The notes under the pieces were generated by a model. It was not told the origin of the DNA and made no database searches. It saw nothing but the letters and a program-made list of their open reading frames with translations. From Fimbriimonadales bacterium (GTDB taxonomy: Bacteria > Armatimonadota > Fimbriimonadia > Fimbriimonadales > ATM1), in contig JBGTLG010000025.1 of the NCBI GenBank assembly GCA_041744215.1, positions 32,001-96,000 of the forward strand: a DNA stretch of 64,000 bases. Reading direction: 5' to 3'. The position numbers were made by a program, and so were the translations under genes. Below are positions 11,796-54,509 of the stretch, one piece after another (the stretch's first letter is position 1; the number at the start of each line of letters is the position of its first letter).

Positions 11796-11861
11796 TTGCG
11801 CTCCTACCGCTACCGCCCGAATGGGCTGGGACCCGGTCGAGACCGAACGAGGTGAAATGGA

Positions 11862-12820: not shown

Positions 12821-12833
12821 CACGGAGAATGGC

Positions 12834-35089: not shown

Positions 35090-35173
35090 GACTCACCCGG
35101 AAGGCTTTCCGACCCACCGGGGGAGTGTTCCGGCTCACCCGGAGCACTTTCCGCCTCACTGGTAGAGGTCTCT
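35090..35173 (+). repeat. Degenerate 21-bp tandem repeat, four copies
   Basis: GACTCACCCGGAAGGCTTTCC / GACCCACCGGGGGAGTGTTCC / GGCTCACCCGGAGCACTTTCC / GCCTCACTGGTAGAGGTCTCT. Confidence 0.75.
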
Positions 35174-48391: not shown

Positions 48392-48586
48392 GCCTTGCCT
48401 TCGCTTACTGGCTATCGCTGAGGACTTGGAAGACCAGTCAGAATAACGATTCCATGGTTGACGGGTAGGTGGGGAGGTTGTCGAAGGCTCACGAAACTCA
48501 TCGAACTCATCGCCTTGTTTAATTGTTAACGCGGGGCTTCTAAGTTCAAGACTGCTTCTGCGGCTGCCTTTCGGCACAAGGCAGGC
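48392..48586 (+). ncRNA. Candidate ~195-nt rod-shaped RNA, possibly 6S RNA
   Basis: Five nested helices folded by hand, with G-U pairs favouring the + strand; TACTAT -10 box at 48381-48386 just upstream. Confidence 0.45.
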
Positions 48587-48743
48587 AAGAGTTGATTGGT
48601 GCAGCTACACCAGCTATTAAGTCTTTTCGAGAGCGAAAGTCAACCGCCGGACTTGGTTTGTGTCTCACCGTCATCGACCGCTTTCGAGGAATTCTCAAGT
48701 CGAACTCGGCGCGAACCAGGTTGGCGGAGGCTGTATGTCGTGA

Positions 48744-51053
48744 TCACTTGATCTCGGCAGGCGGAGCAGTTTCGGGTTCAGATTTGCGATGAGACCTTCG
48801 CGTATCAGCAACTTCGACATTCTGTATCGCCATCTCCAATTGCGCGAGCATCCAGGAGATCGTCGATTCGGCACCGAGGTTTCGATTTGCACCAATCGGG
48901 GTGAGTCCATCTCTGCACCCACCGCTTGCGGCCTCAACAAGTGGGGTTCCCAGGACATTTCGGCCAAGGAACCATTCGTAGGCTGCCTGCATCCTCTCGG
49001 TCCACTTCGTATCATCGCTGATTGCGTACGCTTTCGCAGCCGCGGAAACCAGTGCGACAGCATCGACGGGCTGCTGGTCAAAAATCGCTCGGCTTTCTCC
49101 ATGCGACCACCAACCGTCGCTTCCGATAAGCGACACACACTTCTGTTTCGAGTCCCAACATGCTGAAAAGAGCCACGCAAGCGAAGCCAGCCCGATCTTT
49201 CGAAAACTGCCCGTTTCGTCGTACGGCGCCATCGCGAGAAGCGCTTCGGGCTTTCGCGCATTGTCGTACGCGAGGATCGTTTCGAACCACCGCCAATCTT
49301 CTACCGCCACTTTTGAATAGAGCGCTGCGATCCGAGACGCAAGCAACAGGCCGAGTTTTCGAACATGCGCGTCTCCAGGGTACTTATCAAGATAGGCAGC
49401 GCATCCGAGAGCACCGAACGCCCACGATCGCGGACTCTTTGCCCGTCGCAACCAAGGGGCAACTTCTCCAAACAGTTCAAACGCGCAGCGCATCATGTCT
49501 TCGTCAGGCGCTTGGGCAACTGCCACACCCAACGCCCAGACTGCGCGGCCGTGCGAATCGTCCGCGCCGGCTTTCTCCAGCCAGCGACGCTCGAACGACA
49601 TAAAGTTACGCATGCGACTGCTGCTCGGACTCTTGGCGTGCAAAATGAACTCGAGTGACTTTCGCGCAATGCGATTCGCTTCTGGCAGGCCAGATAGCTT
49701 GAATTCGTAGCACGCAGCAATCAGCGCGCGCGCATTGTCGTCAGTGCAATAGCCGTGGTTTCTATCGGCAACAGAATGGCGCGCATGCTGCAACACGCCG
49801 ACGTCGTCGGTGATGGCGCTGAGGTGCGCCCACTCCCTGGAACTGACGCTCACCGTCGGCCGATCTGATGCAGGAAACGCCAAACGCTGTCCGCACAAAA
49901 TGTCCGATGCGGCGGAACGCGTGGCCTTCCCAACGTTTTCCCAAGTGAAAGAGCGCCCATACTTGTATGCGGCCTTGCGAATCTTGACCGTCATCGCGCC
50001 GTCGGAAAGCGCGGCGCGCATGTTCTCAGCCAACGTGTCGGGATCATTGAACGGCGTCAGGATGCCGCGACCCGACGAGAGCAGTTCCTTAGCGGCGACG
50101 TATGGTGTCGCGATCACCGCTTTCCCTGCGCCCGTCGCGAACGCGAGCGGGCCCGAACTCACCTGCGCAGGATCGGGATAGGGAGAAATGTAGATGTCGG
50201 CCGCTTGCAGATACTCGGCAAGCTCGGTGTCTGAAACGTATTTGTTTACAAAGCGAACGTTTTTCGTAAGTCCAAGTGTCTCGGTTTGTGCGATCAAGCG
50301 TTCCCGATACGCTTCCCCTTCATGACGCAGCAGACCGGGGTGCGTCGCGCCAACGATCAGATACATCACGTCTGGAAAATCATCCACGATTTTTGCGAGC
50401 GCGTTAAGCGCCATCTCGATGCCTTTGCCTGGACCCAAGTGACCAAACGTAAGCATCACTTTCTGACCTGTCAGATCAATGGTCTCTTTATAAAACTCCG
50501 GATCAGAAAACGGAAGGTCGGGCGCGCCGTGCGGAATGTGCACGATCTTGCGCTTCGAAACACCATAAACCTCTTCGAGTGTTGGGATCGCTGACTTTGA
50601 AAGCACGATCATCTCGGACGCCAATTCACCCAGCGCTGCCAGCGTGTCGCGCTGTCCGGGCGTTGGTTCGGGAAGAACTGTGTGCAGCGTTGCGACGAGC
50701 GGCTTCTCAAGTTTGCGAACGAAGTCTAAGATCCACTCGCCATCTGGCCCGCCGAAGATTCCATATTCGTGCTGCAGAACGACAACGTCGATTGGTGCGC
50801 GGTTCAAATAGTCTGCGGCAACAGCGTAATCCGCTTGCACATCCGCGCGAATCTCAAACCCAACTTCGTCAGGATAACTGTAGGCTGTGTCCGCGTCGGT
50901 CATCGCAACGACAAGCGGCAACTTTTCCTCGTATACGCCTGCCTTAGCGTACGCCGCGCCAACAAGCTGCGCAAACGTGGCGAGGCCGCACTTGCGAGGG
51001 ACATACGTGCTAACGATCGCGAGCCGAGGCTCGTTGCGTAAAGATTTTCTCAA
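48744..51053 (-). CDS. GT4 glycosyltransferase fused to a C-terminal (alpha/alpha)6 glycosidase-like domain
   Basis: STYVPRKCGLATF, LQHEYGIFGG, IPHG, QVSSG; C-terminal GYCTDDNARAL, YDNA, FDQQP, GAEST. Confidence 0.88.
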   Translation of the reverse strand: MRKSLRNEPRLAIVSTYVPRKCGLATFAQLVGAAYAKAGVYEEKLPLVVAMTDADTAYSYPDEVGFEIRADVQADYAVAADYLNRAPIDVVVLQHEYGIFGGPDGEWILDFVRKLEKPLVATLHTVLPEPTPGQRDTLAALGELASEMIVLSKSAIPTLEEVYGVSKRKIVHIPHGAPDLPFSDPEFYKETIDLTGQKVMLTFGHLGPGKGIEMALNALAKIVDDFPDVMYLIVGATHPGLLRHEGEAYRERLIAQTETLGLTKNVRFVNKYVSDTELAEYLQAADIYISPYPDPAQVSSGPLAFATGAGKAVIATPYVAAKELLSSGRGILTPFNDPDTLAENMRAALSDGAMTVKIRKAAYKYGRSFTWENVGKATRSAASDILCGQRLAFPASDRPTVSVSSREWAHLSAITDDVGVLQHARHSVADRNHGYCTDDNARALIAACYEFKLSGLPEANRIARKSLEFILHAKSPSSSRMRNFMSFERRWLEKAGADDSHGRAVWALGVAVAQAPDEDMMRCAFELFGEVAPWLRRAKSPRSWAFGALGCAAYLDKYPGDAHVRKLGLLLASRIAALYSKVAVEDWRWFETILAYDNARKPEALLAMAPYDETGSFRKIGLASLAWLFSACWDSKQKCVSLIGSDGWWSHGESRAIFDQQPVDAVALVSAAAKAYAISDDTKWTERMQAAYEWFLGRNVLGTPLVEAASGGCRDGLTPIGANRNLGAESTISWMLAQLEMAIQNVEVADTRRSHRKSEPETAPPAEIK

Positions 51054-51122
51054 GGCGCTCCACTCCTTCTTGCGGACTCAAAAATAAGGCGGCGACCGTT
51101 TACATTACGCCAGCGGCCCCGA

Positions 51123-52076
51123 TTACGCTGCATGATCGCGCAGCCAACTCAGCAACTCGCGCAAACTCGCCGTCGCGATGCCGACGCTCGTATCCGCGCA
51201 CCCGTAATACACGCGCAACTCGTCGCCGTCGTCGCCGACAGTCCATCCGCAGGGAAACACGACATATCCGACGTCGCCATCCTGCTCGTAGGGCATCTCC
51301 GGGGCAAAAACCCACTCCGTGCAGCGGCGGATCAGCTTGCTCGGGTCTTCGAGATCGAAGAGCGCCAGGCCCTGTCGATAGATACACCCGGCGGGCGTCA
51401 GCCGCACCCCGTGATACATCATCAGCCACCCCTCGGCCGTCTCCAGGGGCGGCGGCGAGAGCCCGATCTTGTTCGCGTCCCACCACGCCCCATGCCGTGC
51501 GGCGAGGATCTCGCGGTGGACGCCCCAATGGATCAAGTCGGGCGACTGGCTCAGCCAGATGTCCGCCGAACGCGCGAACGCAGACACCGGGCGGTGCAGC
51601 AGCAGCCAATGCCCGCCGAACTTGCGCGGAAACAGCGCCGCGTCCTTGTCTTCGGGCGGGATCACGCTGCCGACCTTGTCGAACGACCGGAAATCCTCGG
51701 TCATCGCCATCTTCACGTGCGGGCCGCCCTCGAAATAGCCCGTATACGTGATGCAGTACTTGCCGAGTTCGGGGACATAAACGACCCGCGCGTCCTCGAT
51801 CCCCCACTTTTCGTCGGAATCGGGGCTCTCGTCGGGGGCGAGCGTCGGGGTCGGGTCGATCTCCCAGCCGGTGAAGCCGTCCTTGCTGCGCGCGGCGGTG
51901 AGGTGCGAGATGCCTCGCCGGTCCTCGACGCGCACGAGGAGGAGGGTCGAGCCGTCCTGGAGGCGCGTCGCGCCGCAGTTGAAAACGGTGTTGCACGCGT
52001 AGGGCCAGATGGTGGCGTCGAGGATCGGGTTCGATGGGTGGCGATGGAAAAGGTTGGTGACGTGGCCGTTCTTCAT
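51123..52076 (-). CDS. GH130-family glycosidase/mannoside phosphorylase
   Basis: VFNCGA, RVEDRRGISH, GIEDARV, DKDAALFP, LLHRP, WLMMYHG, VVFPCG, YYGCADT; start at the ATG of MKNGH. Confidence 0.92.
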   Translation of the reverse strand: MKNGHVTNLFHRHPSNPILDATIWPYACNTVFNCGATRLQDGSTLLLVRVEDRRGISHLTAARSKDGFTGWEIDPTPTLAPDESPDSDEKWGIEDARVVYVPELGKYCITYTGYFEGGPHVKMAMTEDFRSFDKVGSVIPPEDKDAALFPRKFGGHWLLLHRPVSAFARSADIWLSQSPDLIHWGVHREILAARHGAWWDANKIGLSPPPLETAEGWLMMYHGVRLTPAGCIYRQGLALFDLEDPSKLIRRCTEWVFAPEMPYEQDGDVGYVVFPCGWTVGDDGDELRVYYGCADTSVGIATASLRELLSWLRDHAA

Positions 52077-52197
52077 AGTGAGATTCCCCGCTTCTGACGG
52101 GCAGGGGACGCTAAGTGATTCTCGGCGGATGGGCGGGATGCGTGAGGTTGCTTTTTGGGGGTCTAAATCCTCCATAGCGAGCGGGGCGGGACAAAGC

Positions 52198-52236
52198 TCA
52201 CATCCCGTGGAGTGGATGTGGCATCGGCGAAAGGCG
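52198..52236 (+). repeat. 39-bp hairpin-forming direct repeat, copy 1
   Basis: TCACATCCCGTGGAGTGGATGTGGCATCGGCGAAAGGCG; 35/39 identical to 52851-52889. Confidence 0.9.
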
Positions 52237-52253
52237 GGGTATCTTTTTCGAAG

Positions 52254-52847
52254 ATGATCCCCGTCACTCTGCTCCTCTTGACGCAAGGAACTGCTCCACA
52301 ACTCGATGCCGCTGCCAGTTACGCAGATTACCTCGCTCAGTTTGAAACTTCTGAGGCCATTGTCGGCGCTTTCCAGCACAGTGGGGGCCCGAGATCTCAG
52401 CCTGATGTGTCTGTCTTTCGGGTGAAGAAAGGCGGAATGTATTCGATGCTGATGAGCGACGCAGAAGAGTACTTCGACGGAAACTCGCTGTACCGGTACT
52501 TTCCTGCACAAAACCGATACAAGGTAGGTGTAGGCAGTCATTCCAACTTCGCGGCTTTGTTTGGACGCAGATTTGTGCCTGATTCCACGATGGTCATCAC
52601 AGTGCGCTCCGTGGAAGATGGCGAATGGAGCGGAACTCCAGCTCGCATCTTCCTTTTGCGTTTTGACTCTCACGCTAATGAAATTGAATTGTTCGTGCGA
52701 AAAAGCGACCTGAGGCCGATCGGCTTACGATATCGCGGCGCTCAAGCGCAATACATGACCCTTGTTGTGCAGCTTCGGACGGATTTGAGTTTGCCGGATT
52801 CAGTTTTTCAATGGACTGCTCCGAAGAACGTCAAGCGAGTTGATTGA
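52254..52847 (+). CDS. LolA-like (outer-membrane lipoprotein carrier fold) exported protein
   Basis: Short signal; YFDGNSLYRYFPAQNRY and C-terminal LPDSVFQWTAPKNVKRVD resemble LolA/DUF2092 proteins. Confidence 0.7.
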   Translation: MIPVTLLLLTQGTAPQLDAAASYADYLAQFETSEAIVGAFQHSGGPRSQPDVSVFRVKKGGMYSMLMSDAEEYFDGNSLYRYFPAQNRYKVGVGSHSNFAALFGRRFVPDSTMVITVRSVEDGEWSGTPARIFLLRFDSHANEIELFVRKSDLRPIGLRYRGAQAQYMTLVVQLRTDLSLPDSVFQWTAPKNVKRVD

Positions 52848-52850
52848 AGG

Positions 52851-52889
52851 TCATATCCCGTGGAAGGGATGTGGCATCGGCGAAATGCG
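52851..52889 (+). repeat. 39-bp hairpin-forming direct repeat, copy 2
   Basis: TCATATCCCGTGGAAGGGATGTGGCATCGGCGAAATGCG, 3 bp after the stop codon. Confidence 0.9.
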
Positions 52890-52936
52890 CGAGCGGAGGC
52901 GCAAACAGCCGCGCCGCTCCCGCTGCGCCGTTTTTT

Positions 52937-53087
52937 GCCGGCGACGGATGAAGAATTGCCGCCCGGAATGGGGCGTCGCCTGCACAAAGTGAGTTTGCGC
53001 CGGCAACGGCTGAGATATTGCCGCACGGAATGGGGCGCCGCCAGCACAAAATGATTTTGCGCCGGCAGTTTTTCATTTTTGCCGCCC
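52937..53087 (+). repeat. 62-bp tandem repeat, about 2.4 copies, with ~21-bp substructure
   Basis: Units start with GCCGGC at 52937, 52999 and 53061. Confidence 0.85.
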
Positions 53088-53110
53088 TGCGAGGCCGAAT
53101 TTGAACTTGG

Positions 53111-53490
53111 GGAGGGTTTTTTGGGCGTGGAGGCGAACTTTTTGGGCGGGGATGCCCTCGTCAGGCGGACCTACATAAGACAAGTGACCCCGGCGGCCTT
53201 ACGGCTTGCCGGGGTTTTGCTTTTTTCAGGGGCTTGATTCGGGGAGGAATCTTTTTGGGCGGGGGCGAAACAAAGGAATTGATCGGGTGTCTCGTTAGCT
53301 CATTCTCCAAGCGCCCCGGCGGCAACGACTGCCCGCCGGGGCGCTTGCTTTTTCGGGGGCTCGGTTCGGCGCATGGAGGAATCTTTTTTGGCCGCGGCGA
53401 AGCAAAGGAACTGTTAGGGCATTCATCCGCCCTTTCACCTCAGCCCCGGCCAGAGCATCCCACATTGGGTCTCTTCCGGGGCGCTCCATT
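53111..53490 (+). repeat. ~132-bp-period array of three promoter-like/variable/terminator units (candidate sibling sRNA genes)
   Basis: GGAGG..TTTTTGG.CG..GGCGAA at 53111, 53243, 53375; CCCCGG..CCGGGG hairpins at 53186-53216, 53309-53346, 53443-53482. Confidence 0.75.
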
Positions 53491-53773
53491 TGCATCCGGC
53501 CACTTGCAGCCGGACCGAGTGCCCGTCGGGGTCTCGTAGCTTCGAAGTGCGCCCGACCGGCATGCGAGGCAACCGAGAACGCCCGAGTATCGAATCTAAG
53601 TCCTCGGATTCAAAACGCGTGCGACCGACAATTGACATGGTTCGTCCTTATCGCATCTCAAGTCAACAGAAGAGCAAGACCAATATGATCGGCTGGTTTC
53701 GGCTTGCGATGCCTTTTCGAACACTTCGCATCGCGACGTGGTGGCCTTTGCCGATGTAGTGCATAGCGGAGCC

Positions 53774-53944
53774 ATGGTTTCATTGGCTGTCGCGACGAAG
53801 TTAAGGGCGCATTTAGACGCCCGCACGCTCACAGATTCGGACATCGCTACCGGGCTTGAGGAGATTGAAGTCGTATCAGCCACCCTCGTCGACTCGGCGA
53901 AGATGGCTGCGCAGGCGCAACTCGAGGCTTCCGACGATGGATAA
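53774..53944 (+). CDS. Small hypothetical protein (56-68 aa)
   Basis: Helical composition; its end overlaps the TIR gene ATG; alternative GTG start at 53738. Confidence 0.4.
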   Translation: MVSLAVATKLRAHLDARTLTDSDIATGLEEIEVVSATLVDSAKMAAQAQLEASDDG

Positions 53945-54374
53945 AGGCAGCGCTCATAGGGCCCCTGTTCGCAAAGTCTACATTGCTGCGAACCATAGAA
54001 ATGACTTGGACTTCGCGAAAGAGCTGATGTCGCGGGCTGAACAAAGCGATCTCGAATTCAGCGTAGGGCCGCCGAGGGGCAGATACGCCGTAGGCGGCCC
54101 CGGCTCGTATGCTTTGAAGCTCACCGTTTCCCACGCCATCAATCCATGCAGCCACGTTCTGGTCGTCGTAGGAGAGCAAACGCAGTCAGATGCTTGGGTT
54201 GATTGGGAGGTCGACCTTGCAATCAACTTGCGCAAGCGGCTGGCCGCAGTGTATCTTGATCCCAACTTTGAGCCGCCCGATGCGCTCAAGTTCTGCGTCA
54301 TCGAGTTGGCGAAGGATCGCAGCTTGGATTCGATTCGGGCTGCCATTCTTCGCGCGGACCGCGCGCGGCAGTAG
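53937..54374 (+). CDS. ThsB-like / MTH538 (DUF1863) TIR-domain protein
   Basis: KVYIA..H..D, SHVLVVVGEQTQSDAWVDWEVDLAINLRKRLAAVYL, PPDAL; GAGG RBS. Confidence 0.8.
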   Translation: MDKGSAHRAPVRKVYIAANHRNDLDFAKELMSRAEQSDLEFSVGPPRGRYAVGGPGSYALKLTVSHAINPCSHVLVVVGEQTQSDAWVDWEVDLAINLRKRLAAVYLDPNFEPPDALKFCVIELAKDRSLDSIRAAILRADRARQ

Positions 54375-54399
54375 GAAGCGCTTTTAGCTCCCTCGTATG

Positions 54400-54471
54400 C
54401 CTCCACCGCTTGCTCGGAGGCTACGGAGATGCGGCACCGTCTCCTGCACCCTCCACGGCAAGCGGTGGAGG
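54400..54471. repeat. 72-bp nested imperfect palindrome
   Basis: Perfect 14-bp arms CCTCCACCGCTTGC...GCAAGCGGTGGAGG, inner GGAGG/CCTCC and GGAGA/TCTCC stems. Confidence 0.85.
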
Positions 54472-54509
54472 GATAAAAGTGGCGGGCGCGCAGGCGGTAA
54501 CCTTGCGCC

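Follow-up and report, generated by a model that had tools for sequence, protein, structure and literature searches.

The 890-bp intergenic gap between a 211-aa ORF and the genes for orf68 (68 aa) and a ThsB-like TIR protein contains three units that start at 53111, 53243 and 53375, i.e. in steps of exactly 132 bp, as seen both by reading the sequence and with a repeat finder. Each unit comprises a common 5' block, a middle that is unrelated to those of the other units, and one hairpin with a CCCCGG/CCGGGG base. We favor, at about an even chance, the explanation that these are species-specific short non-coding transcription units under the control of an ECF-like alternative sigma factor. If their transcription is as predicted, the units would provide the first small RNA (sRNA) candidates in Armatimonadota, for which our literature search found no paper on promoters or small RNAs; they would also exemplify sRNA genes in tandem with common regulation and differing sequences. 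Coordinates given without a contig name refer to the window, which is the whole 64,000-nt stretch that was analyzed (contig C25, positions 32001-96000, of assembly G000; 2.68 Mb, 42 contigs, 93% complete).

The array and the module around it

The array stretch is found in hot-spring metagenome runs. It is unchanged and without variants in the DNA contigs of three runs, all from one study, and a contig from a second sample of that study covers 53031-53550 with 0 differences, so the array did not arise in assembly. The main features are as follows.

52889..52936, + strand: start of the module, a GC-rich hairpin (GAGCGGAGGCGC..GCGCCGCTC) followed by TTTTTT
52932..53117, + strand: leader of 62-bp repeats (52932-52993, 52994-53055 and a degenerate third, 53056-53117)
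53093..53112, + strand: junction motif, GGCCGAATTTGAACTTGGGG
53111..53242, + strand: unit 1, with the block at 53111-53137, GGGTT as -35, CGAA at 53134-53137 and a half-copy of the block repeat from 53130
53187-53215 and 53215-53226, + strand: hairpin and U tract in the 3' part of unit 1 (from sequence, repeat finder and folding)
53243..53374, + strand: unit 2, with -35 GGAAT at 53246-53250, -10 CGAA at 53266-53269 and a putative 5' end at ~53276
53301-53308, + strand: anti-Shine-Dalgarno-like word of unit 2, CATTCTCC (= CAUUCUCC)
53308-53347, + strand: 15-bp stem of the unit 2 terminator (repeat finder I1), followed by CTTTTT at 53348-53353
53375..53506, + strand: unit 3, with -35 GGAAT at 53378-53382, -10 CGAA at 53398-53401 and a putative 5' end at ~53408
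~53416-53433, + strand: small hairpin of unit 3
53433-53441, + strand: anti-Shine-Dalgarno-like word of unit 3, TTTCACCTC (= UUUCACCUC)
53443-53482, + strand: long hairpin of unit 3, followed by CCATTTGC, without a U tract
53738-53944, + strand: orf68, which overlaps the start of the TIR gene
53937-54374, + strand: ThsB-like TIR gene, 145 aa (Pfam PF08937, 4.9e-8; PADLOC ThsB, 1.3e-7)

The block has the consensus GGAGG..TTTTT.GG.CG..GGCGAA at all three unit starts. The repeat finder returned it as family D3 (45 nt, 84% identity, spacing 132) and also reported family D1, with 29-nt copies at 53109, 53241 and 53376 and an additional half-copy at 53130, and family D4 (42 nt, 71% identity), which corresponds to the 3' arm of the hairpin, its tail and the linker. 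The linker GGGGCT.G.TTCGG is common to units 1 and 2. Units 2 and 3 both read GGAAT-N15-CGAA-N-CAAAGGAA, with GGGTT replacing GGAAT in unit 1. A preliminary description of this DNA had reported the 132-bp spacing and the common block, which are present as it described them, and had noted that the variable segments of units 2 and 3 end in words resembling the anti-Shine-Dalgarno (anti-SD) sequence; these words were indeed found, at 53301-53308 and 53433-53441. Absent from that description were the leader repeats, a second locus and the missing U tract of unit 3.

The array is the tail of a larger module, in which a leader of ~250 bp made of 62-bp hairpin repeats precedes the units. Judging from its sequence, the hairpin and T tract at the start of the module probably terminate the upstream 211-aa ORF (52212-52847), a reading frame without a Pfam match. 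TRF placed the leader repeats at 52937-53067 (period 62, 2.1 copies, 87% matches), in agreement with repeat-finder families D2 and I4. A hairpin can form in every one of the 62-bp repeats, and copies 1 and 2 contain the near-promoter word CGGAAT-N15-CAAA.

A second copy of the module, consisting of leader and one unit, is located on another contig of the same genome (C30:2980-3300). BLAST aligned 52889 to ~53140 with C30:2980-3214 at 85% identity (E = 2e-75), the homology starting at GAGCGGAGGCGCAAACAGCC. There, the leader is followed by a single unit of the same plan, whose -35 word is GGGTT, giving GGGTT-N15-CGAA as in unit 1. A whole-genome motif scan found the module at these two loci only. 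The genes that flank the C30 copy are unrelated to those around the array, and the function of all of them is unknown; its single unit lies directly upstream of accessory genes, and the downstream gene carries a canonical promoter of its own, TTGACA-N17-TAGAAT. Both loci are variable gene neighborhoods. Elsewhere in the genome (C40:34499-34660), GCGTTTTTGGGCGTGGGGGCGGAG, a sequence closely like the unit 1 block, follows a 21-nt array with GGGAATG in its units; this locus may represent a third and older relative of the module.

Several known element types were considered for the module and set aside: integron attC sites, as there are no GTTRRRY cores; REP elements, which do not fit a presence at two loci only; and MITEs, as no inverted ends were reported by the repeat finder.

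The promoter-like block across genes and genomes

Promoters of the ECF type are recognized here by a -35 word like GGAA(C/T) and a -10 word like CG(T/A) at a fixed spacing of ~15-17 nt. Units 2 and 3 fit this description (GGAAT-N15-CGAA), while unit 1 and the C30 unit do not (GGGTT at -35). The preliminary description had postulated an alternative-sigma promoter in each unit. For units 2 and 3 this is supported by a cross-species footprint at four gene families and by an enrichment tied to spacer length, as detailed below; for unit 1 the claim is not supported.

A scan of the genome for GGAAT-N15-CGAA upstream of genes, which had been proposed in the preliminary description, yielded 42 matches, including sites before comM and the genes for asparaginase, cyclophilin and a 663-aa membrane protein. 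When the fuller block was used (GGAGGAAT-(T/C)CTTTT-GGGC-N-GGCGAA), one further site was found in the genome, 13 nt 5' of the ATG of a ComM-like Mg-chelatase gene, where GGAGGAATTCTTTTGGGCACCGGCGAA nearly repeats the block of the units. Upstream of comM orthologues, GGA(A/G/T)(T/C)-N14/15-CG(A/T)A-N12/13-ATG occurs with unrelated spacers in 7/12 family genomes read (G000, G001, G006, G007, G008, G009 and G011; 6/11 if the unpublished G011 is left out), although the sites in G007 and G009 could be sigma-70-type promoters, because CGTA there overlaps a TANNNT-like word (TACAAT or TAAGAT). The remaining five upstream regions have TAGAAT- or TAAAAT-like words, or nothing, and eight genomes of other families gave 0 strict matches and two near variants. 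The pattern was also seen before the orthologous genes for asparaginase (1/5 relatives, with near variants by eye in G006 and G008), the 663-aa membrane protein (2/5 relatives, with a near variant by eye in G001) and cyclophilin (1/3 relatives, with no near variants by eye). For all four genes, in this genome and its sister genomes, the distance from motif to start codon is 9-13 nt.

To quantify the dependence on spacer length, we counted, in this genome, the motif matches with an ATG or GTG 8-20 nt downstream that opens an ORF of at least 100 aa. Such a start followed 7/122 matches for N12, 9/101 for N13, 14/118 for N14, 21/127 for N15, 12/91 for N16, 10/87 for N17, 7/99 for N18 and 6/101 for N19. 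The enrichment of start codons is thus specific to spacer 15, compared to 6-14 of 87-122 for the other spacers. The candidate regulon consists of comM, asparaginase, the 663-aa membrane protein, cyclophilin, a 195-aa membrane protein and two amidohydrolases (loci C26:3329-3372, C16:122417, C16:27032, C41:151442(-), C33:17206, C6:117735 and C32:83487), with the start codon 9-14 nt past CGAA in all. Genes with the motif, among them comM, asparaginase, cyclophilin and the amidohydrolases, form a mixed set with no obvious envelope-stress regulon.

The main promoter type of this genome is of another kind, TANNNT located 12 nt 5' of the ATG (86/2618 first-ATG ORFs at that offset), with G-rich positions just upstream and no -35 element. 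Given that TANNNT peaks 12 nt before starts, leaderless mRNAs made from -10-only promoters appear to be the main mode of expression. This fits with the low use of Shine-Dalgarno (SD) sequences in Fimbriimonadia, 25% according to a table passage of PMC10783764. Because the housekeeping promoters are TANNNT without a -35 element, GGAAT-N15-CGAA stands as a separate class. The footprint and the spacer-specific enrichment support the view that GGAAT-N15-CGAA of units 2 and 3 acts as a genuine promoter belonging to a minor, ECF-like class. Other readings of the block were rejected: it has no TGGCAC-N5-TTGC by eye, as expected of sigma-54, and, for sigma-70, there is no TANNNT by eye and 0 sigma-70-like sites were found.

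There are 21 sigma-70-family genes in the genome, and its ECF-like sigma genes number roughly 16. One sigma gene has GGAAT-N16-CGAA ~230 nt before its start, and an ECF sigma gene (C16:29950-30080, - strand) has GGAAC-N16-CGTT 6 nt before its ATG; neither is an exact match to N15-CGAA. The latter gene is probably autoregulated and leaderless, and the -10-to-start distance that it gives was used to place the putative transcription starts of unit 2 (~53276) and unit 3 (~53408).

One caveat concerns the spacer within the block. It is common to the units and the comM promoter of the same genome, whereas orthologous comM promoters have unrelated spacers. This sharing is as compatible with recent copying, whether through conversion or in the form of a mobile promoter, as it is with a block held by selection. 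The testable promoter consensus, (GC)AGGAAT-N15-CGAA positioned 9-13 nt 5' of start codons, is maybe the more durable by-product of this analysis. Together with the dominance of leaderless TANNNT promoters in the family, it would improve the annotation of gene starts and regulons in these uncultured thermophiles.

Predicted transcripts: terminators, folds and targets

In the explanation that we favor, the 132-bp units would be copies, in tandem, of a short non-coding cassette that is transcribed on its own and made of an ECF-like promoter, a body of ~40 nt that differs per copy, and the CCCCGG/CCGGGG hairpin. Transcription of unit 2 would start ~6 nt after CGAA, near 53276, and stop at a strong intrinsic terminator, giving an RNA of ~78 nt. 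A similar RNA, possibly starting at ~53144 and with its 3' end at 53226, would come from unit 1, provided that its weaker GGGTT -35 functions. In unit 3, transcription would start near 53408 and, since the hairpin has lost its U tract, the long leader thus made would probably extend into orf68 and the TIR gene.

The hairpins are located at 53187-53215, 53308-53347 (15-nt arms, 100% complementary) and 53443-53482, which confirms the earlier observation of a CCCCGG..CCGGGG hairpin in every unit. The tail TTGCTTTTT follows hairpins 1 and 2. Unit 1 (53187-53215 plus TTTTGCTTTTTT) and unit 2 (15-bp stem plus CTTTTT) have the makeup of intrinsic terminators, and unit 3, in which the hairpin is followed by CCATTTGC, does not. 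Hence, the proposal that each unit has its own terminator survives for units 1 and 2, with their hairpin and U tract, and has to be dropped for unit 3. The C30 unit has a weak U tract, CCCTTTTGG.

We folded the predicted bodies together with their hairpins and found them to be more stable than shuffled sequences (z = -2.7, -3.5, -4.7 and -3.3). The body and terminator of unit 1 reach -38.4 kcal/mol (z = -2.7) and unit 2 reaches -40.0 kcal/mol (z = -3.5), with 0/200 shuffles as stable; the value of -4.7 is that of unit 3. All four units form a stable hairpin on the common CCCCGG/CCGGGG base, with upper stems that differ. Units 2, 3 and C30 follow a common plan, namely a small hairpin, then a single-stranded word of the CUCC/UCACCUC type, then a large hairpin. 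Between units 2 and 3, the 45-nt core is 84% identical (72% with the linker) and the bodies are 53% identical, compared to 0.49 +/- 0.03 for shuffled sequences; the selective conservation of these two units has a Fisher P value of 0.026.

The predicted RNAs would thus begin with a small hairpin, continue with a C/U-rich single-stranded stretch (CUCC, UCACCUC) and end in a terminator hairpin. Their C/U-rich stretch would mimic the anti-SD tail of 16S rRNA, and their shape would be as in sRNAs that pair with ribosome binding sites (RBSs). UCACCUC is part of the anti-SD tail given for the class Fimbriimonadia in PMC10783764. An Hfq gene is present in the genome. On these sequence features, a function of the units as sRNA genes is plausible.

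The longest perfect complementarity of the bodies elsewhere in the genome is 13 nt, compared to 12-15 nt for shuffles, so the seeds or guides suggested in the preliminary description are unsupported, and the exact-complement search revealed no target complementarity beyond chance. Complements of the anti-SD-like words occur at 12824-12831 and 11849-11857, in the RBSs of pheS and rplT, respectively. That description had already attributed them to chance, and rightly so: for one word, 2 RBS matches were found versus 2.44 expected, and for the other, 2 versus 0.62 expected, with 16/100 shuffles reaching 2. The RNA and its seed likewise show no conservation, with a credible unit in 0/19 other family genomes and the four bodies being unrelated.

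A coding role of the units is unlikely from their sequence. ORFs in the units show no consistent frame, with frame-shifting indels between units, and a Pfam search of the units gave nothing above threshold. Small leaderless ORFs were considered and rejected as inconsistent, the one in unit 1 having 8 aa and the one in the C30 unit 23 aa, with no ATG in units 2 and 3. There is one frame, 53234-53539 (101 aa), that is open across units 2 and 3, and 132 is divisible by 3, which would allow the repeats to encode a protein of 44-residue repeats. We give this possibility hardly any credence: unit 1 is in a different frame due to indels of 2 and 5 nt, the open frame passes through the 15-bp terminator stem and U tract of unit 2, the C30 unit keeps the DNA and not the peptide, and Pfam had no match.

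Distribution, rival explanations and known systems

Neither BLAST nor a covariance model detected the units in the 19 other genomes of the family. Built from the four units and run on 20 family genomes, the model found those four. The sole additional match (24 bits, in sister species G001) was rejected, as it consists of two ordinary terminators downstream of a secretin-like gene. Hence, of the checks named in the preliminary description, the BLAST and covariance search for more units ended with a credible unit in 0/19 other family genomes, and conserved periodicity in relatives, the absence of which was to count against the sRNA proposal, was not seen in these 19 genomes either. With no unit found outside this genome among the family genomes searched, conservation lends no support to a function of the RNA bodies. 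The two terminator-like hairpins of the sister species (C9:18447-18592, - strand) lie ~100 nt apart, and the C/U-rich sequence CACUCCUGCACUACUCC precedes the second; they may represent an sRNA candidate of that species, unrelated to the array.

Among 40 relatives, only G001 has any part of the module, the 20-nt junction GGCCGAATTTGAACTTGGGG, which lies at a contig end upstream of rpmE. The syntenic gap between the genes for RNase J and M14 carboxypeptidase measures 6.1 kb in G000 and 1.5 kb in G001. The segment 48400-54450 is absent from the same place in G001, and where G000 has the module, G001 has a 21-nt array of about ten copies (GCCTAATGG type). This variable spot contains a glycosyltransferase, a GH130 enzyme, the 211-aa ORF, the module, orf68 and the ThsB-like TIR gene, and its counterpart in G001 contains a beta-propeller ORF and the 21-nt array. 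In public collections, a pattern scan of genome contigs returned 22 stretches, of which only a sister Fimbriimonadales MAG was related, and a scan of metagenome contigs returned 62 stretches, none extending past the pattern of ~20-30 nt. BLAST of the array against 50,697 phage and 72,556 plasmid records gave no match, and the 10 Rfam matches up to E = 10 were all far below threshold (best 24.6 bits versus a threshold of 60).

How the array relates to the genes downstream bears directly on its interpretation. No terminator-like site was found in 53482-53738, between unit 3 and orf68, and no sigma-70-like promoter in 52000-54500; orf68 and the TIR gene overlap in operon-like fashion (ATGGATAA). 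Transcripts from unit 3, which has a complete promoter and no U tract, may read into these genes. One could thus regard the whole array as the control region of the orf68/TIR operon, with unit 3 as the working promoter of a ~330-nt leader, the terminators of units 1 and 2 insulating or attenuating the operon, and no trans-acting RNAs. That the C30 unit, too, is directly upstream of accessory genes and that 48400-54450 is missing at the same place in G001 are in line with this idea. We consider it unlikely, because the gene downstream of the C30 unit has its own TTGACA-N17-TAGAAT promoter, and because units 1 and 2 have strong terminators ~80 nt past the block, which would be needless in an upstream duplicate. 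With regard to unit 3, it overlaps with the explanation based on short transcription units, and the two are not exclusive. About equally unlikely, in our estimation, is that the units are debris of recent tandem duplication, with the block copied from or to the comM promoter and any transcripts being functionless by-products. The genome has many intergenic arrays with periods of 21, 42 and 62 nt, tandem duplication evidently being common; the module is confined to this species and to two loci; its block shares a spacer with comM of the same genome and not with the orthologues; and the exact-complement search gave no target signal. But the bodies have diverged to the shuffled level (53%), yet the -35 and -10 words and their spacing are intact at 84%, which is unexpected for an old neutral duplication, and all four units retain a stable hairpin with the common base despite differing upper stems. 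The identity of the array in two further samples also argues against debris, albeit weakly, as the samples come from the same study.

The conserved flanks around unrelated middles, the ThsB-like TIR gene directly downstream and the variable neighborhoods of both loci bring to mind a guide-RNA array, with exchangeable guides of ~40 nt for an unknown effector that is perhaps linked to the TIR gene. Such an array seems very improbable: a search of the 93%-complete assembly gave no match to Cas1, the neighbors scanned include neither a nuclease gene nor an Argonaute-like one, nothing matched in the phage and plasmid records, and the units total four, with no variation among three samples. Only marginally better are the prospects of a broader scheme, in which the module would be a cassette system that generates regulatory or guide RNAs anew: a sigma-specific promoter and a hairpin/terminator handle, both fixed, would surround a slot for unrelated inserts of ~40 nt, the module would copy itself into variable, defense-associated neighborhoods, and the RNAs would be used by the TIR protein or another partner. 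Like CRISPR, the array alternates a conserved element with unique segments at a fixed period. Unlike CRISPR, the period is 132 nt rather than ~60-70 nt, the 'repeat' is promoter-like and 84% identical, each unit has a terminator-like hairpin, and there are only three units and no Cas1. Near-identical repeats of 23-50 nt, unique spacers and cas genes do not occur here in the combination that defines CRISPR arrays. The preliminary description, which saw no cas gene and took the layout not to be CRISPR, finds support on both counts.

Closer parallels exist among short RNA genes. The tandem sibling sRNAs LhrC1-4 of Listeria and the streptococcal csRNAs share an RNA body and seed. As in those systems, the units described here are short and follow each other in the same orientation within a single intergenic region, with predicted promoters under one regulator, intrinsic terminators and a C/U-rich stretch that could pair with SD sequences. 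They differ in that their bodies are unrelated (53%, the shuffled level), with only the promoter and the hairpin base in common, and in that nothing similar was found outside one species. MicA, RybB and MicL of E. coli are single sRNA genes, conserved across genera, with known targets. They resemble the units in having a promoter with -35 GGAA(C/T) and a -10 of the CG(T/A) type before a short terminated RNA (predicted, in our case), but the genes that share the motif here make up no obvious envelope-stress regulon. The leader of the module resembles the ToxI-like RNA repeats of type III toxin-antitoxin systems, in that direct repeats in tandem precede a terminator, with protein genes next; however, its repeats are 62 nt long and number 2-3, no ToxN/AbiQ-like gene follows, and the gene downstream of the C30 copy has its own promoter.

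Other repeats abound in this genome. Many tandem arrays have a period of 21 or 42 nt and 4-11 copies, with a consensus that differs per locus (e.g. C15:18970-19152, C30:92921-93083, C24:20528-20763, C25:17506-17754 and, in the window, 35090-35159). Several are located just upstream of genes (obg, asparaginase), and in several the units are hairpins. Finally, between the TIR and M14 genes there is a long hairpin with near-perfect pairing (54396-54475); it has only sub-threshold Rfam matches, to microRNA families, and its 5' part is also found upstream of the M14 gene in G001.
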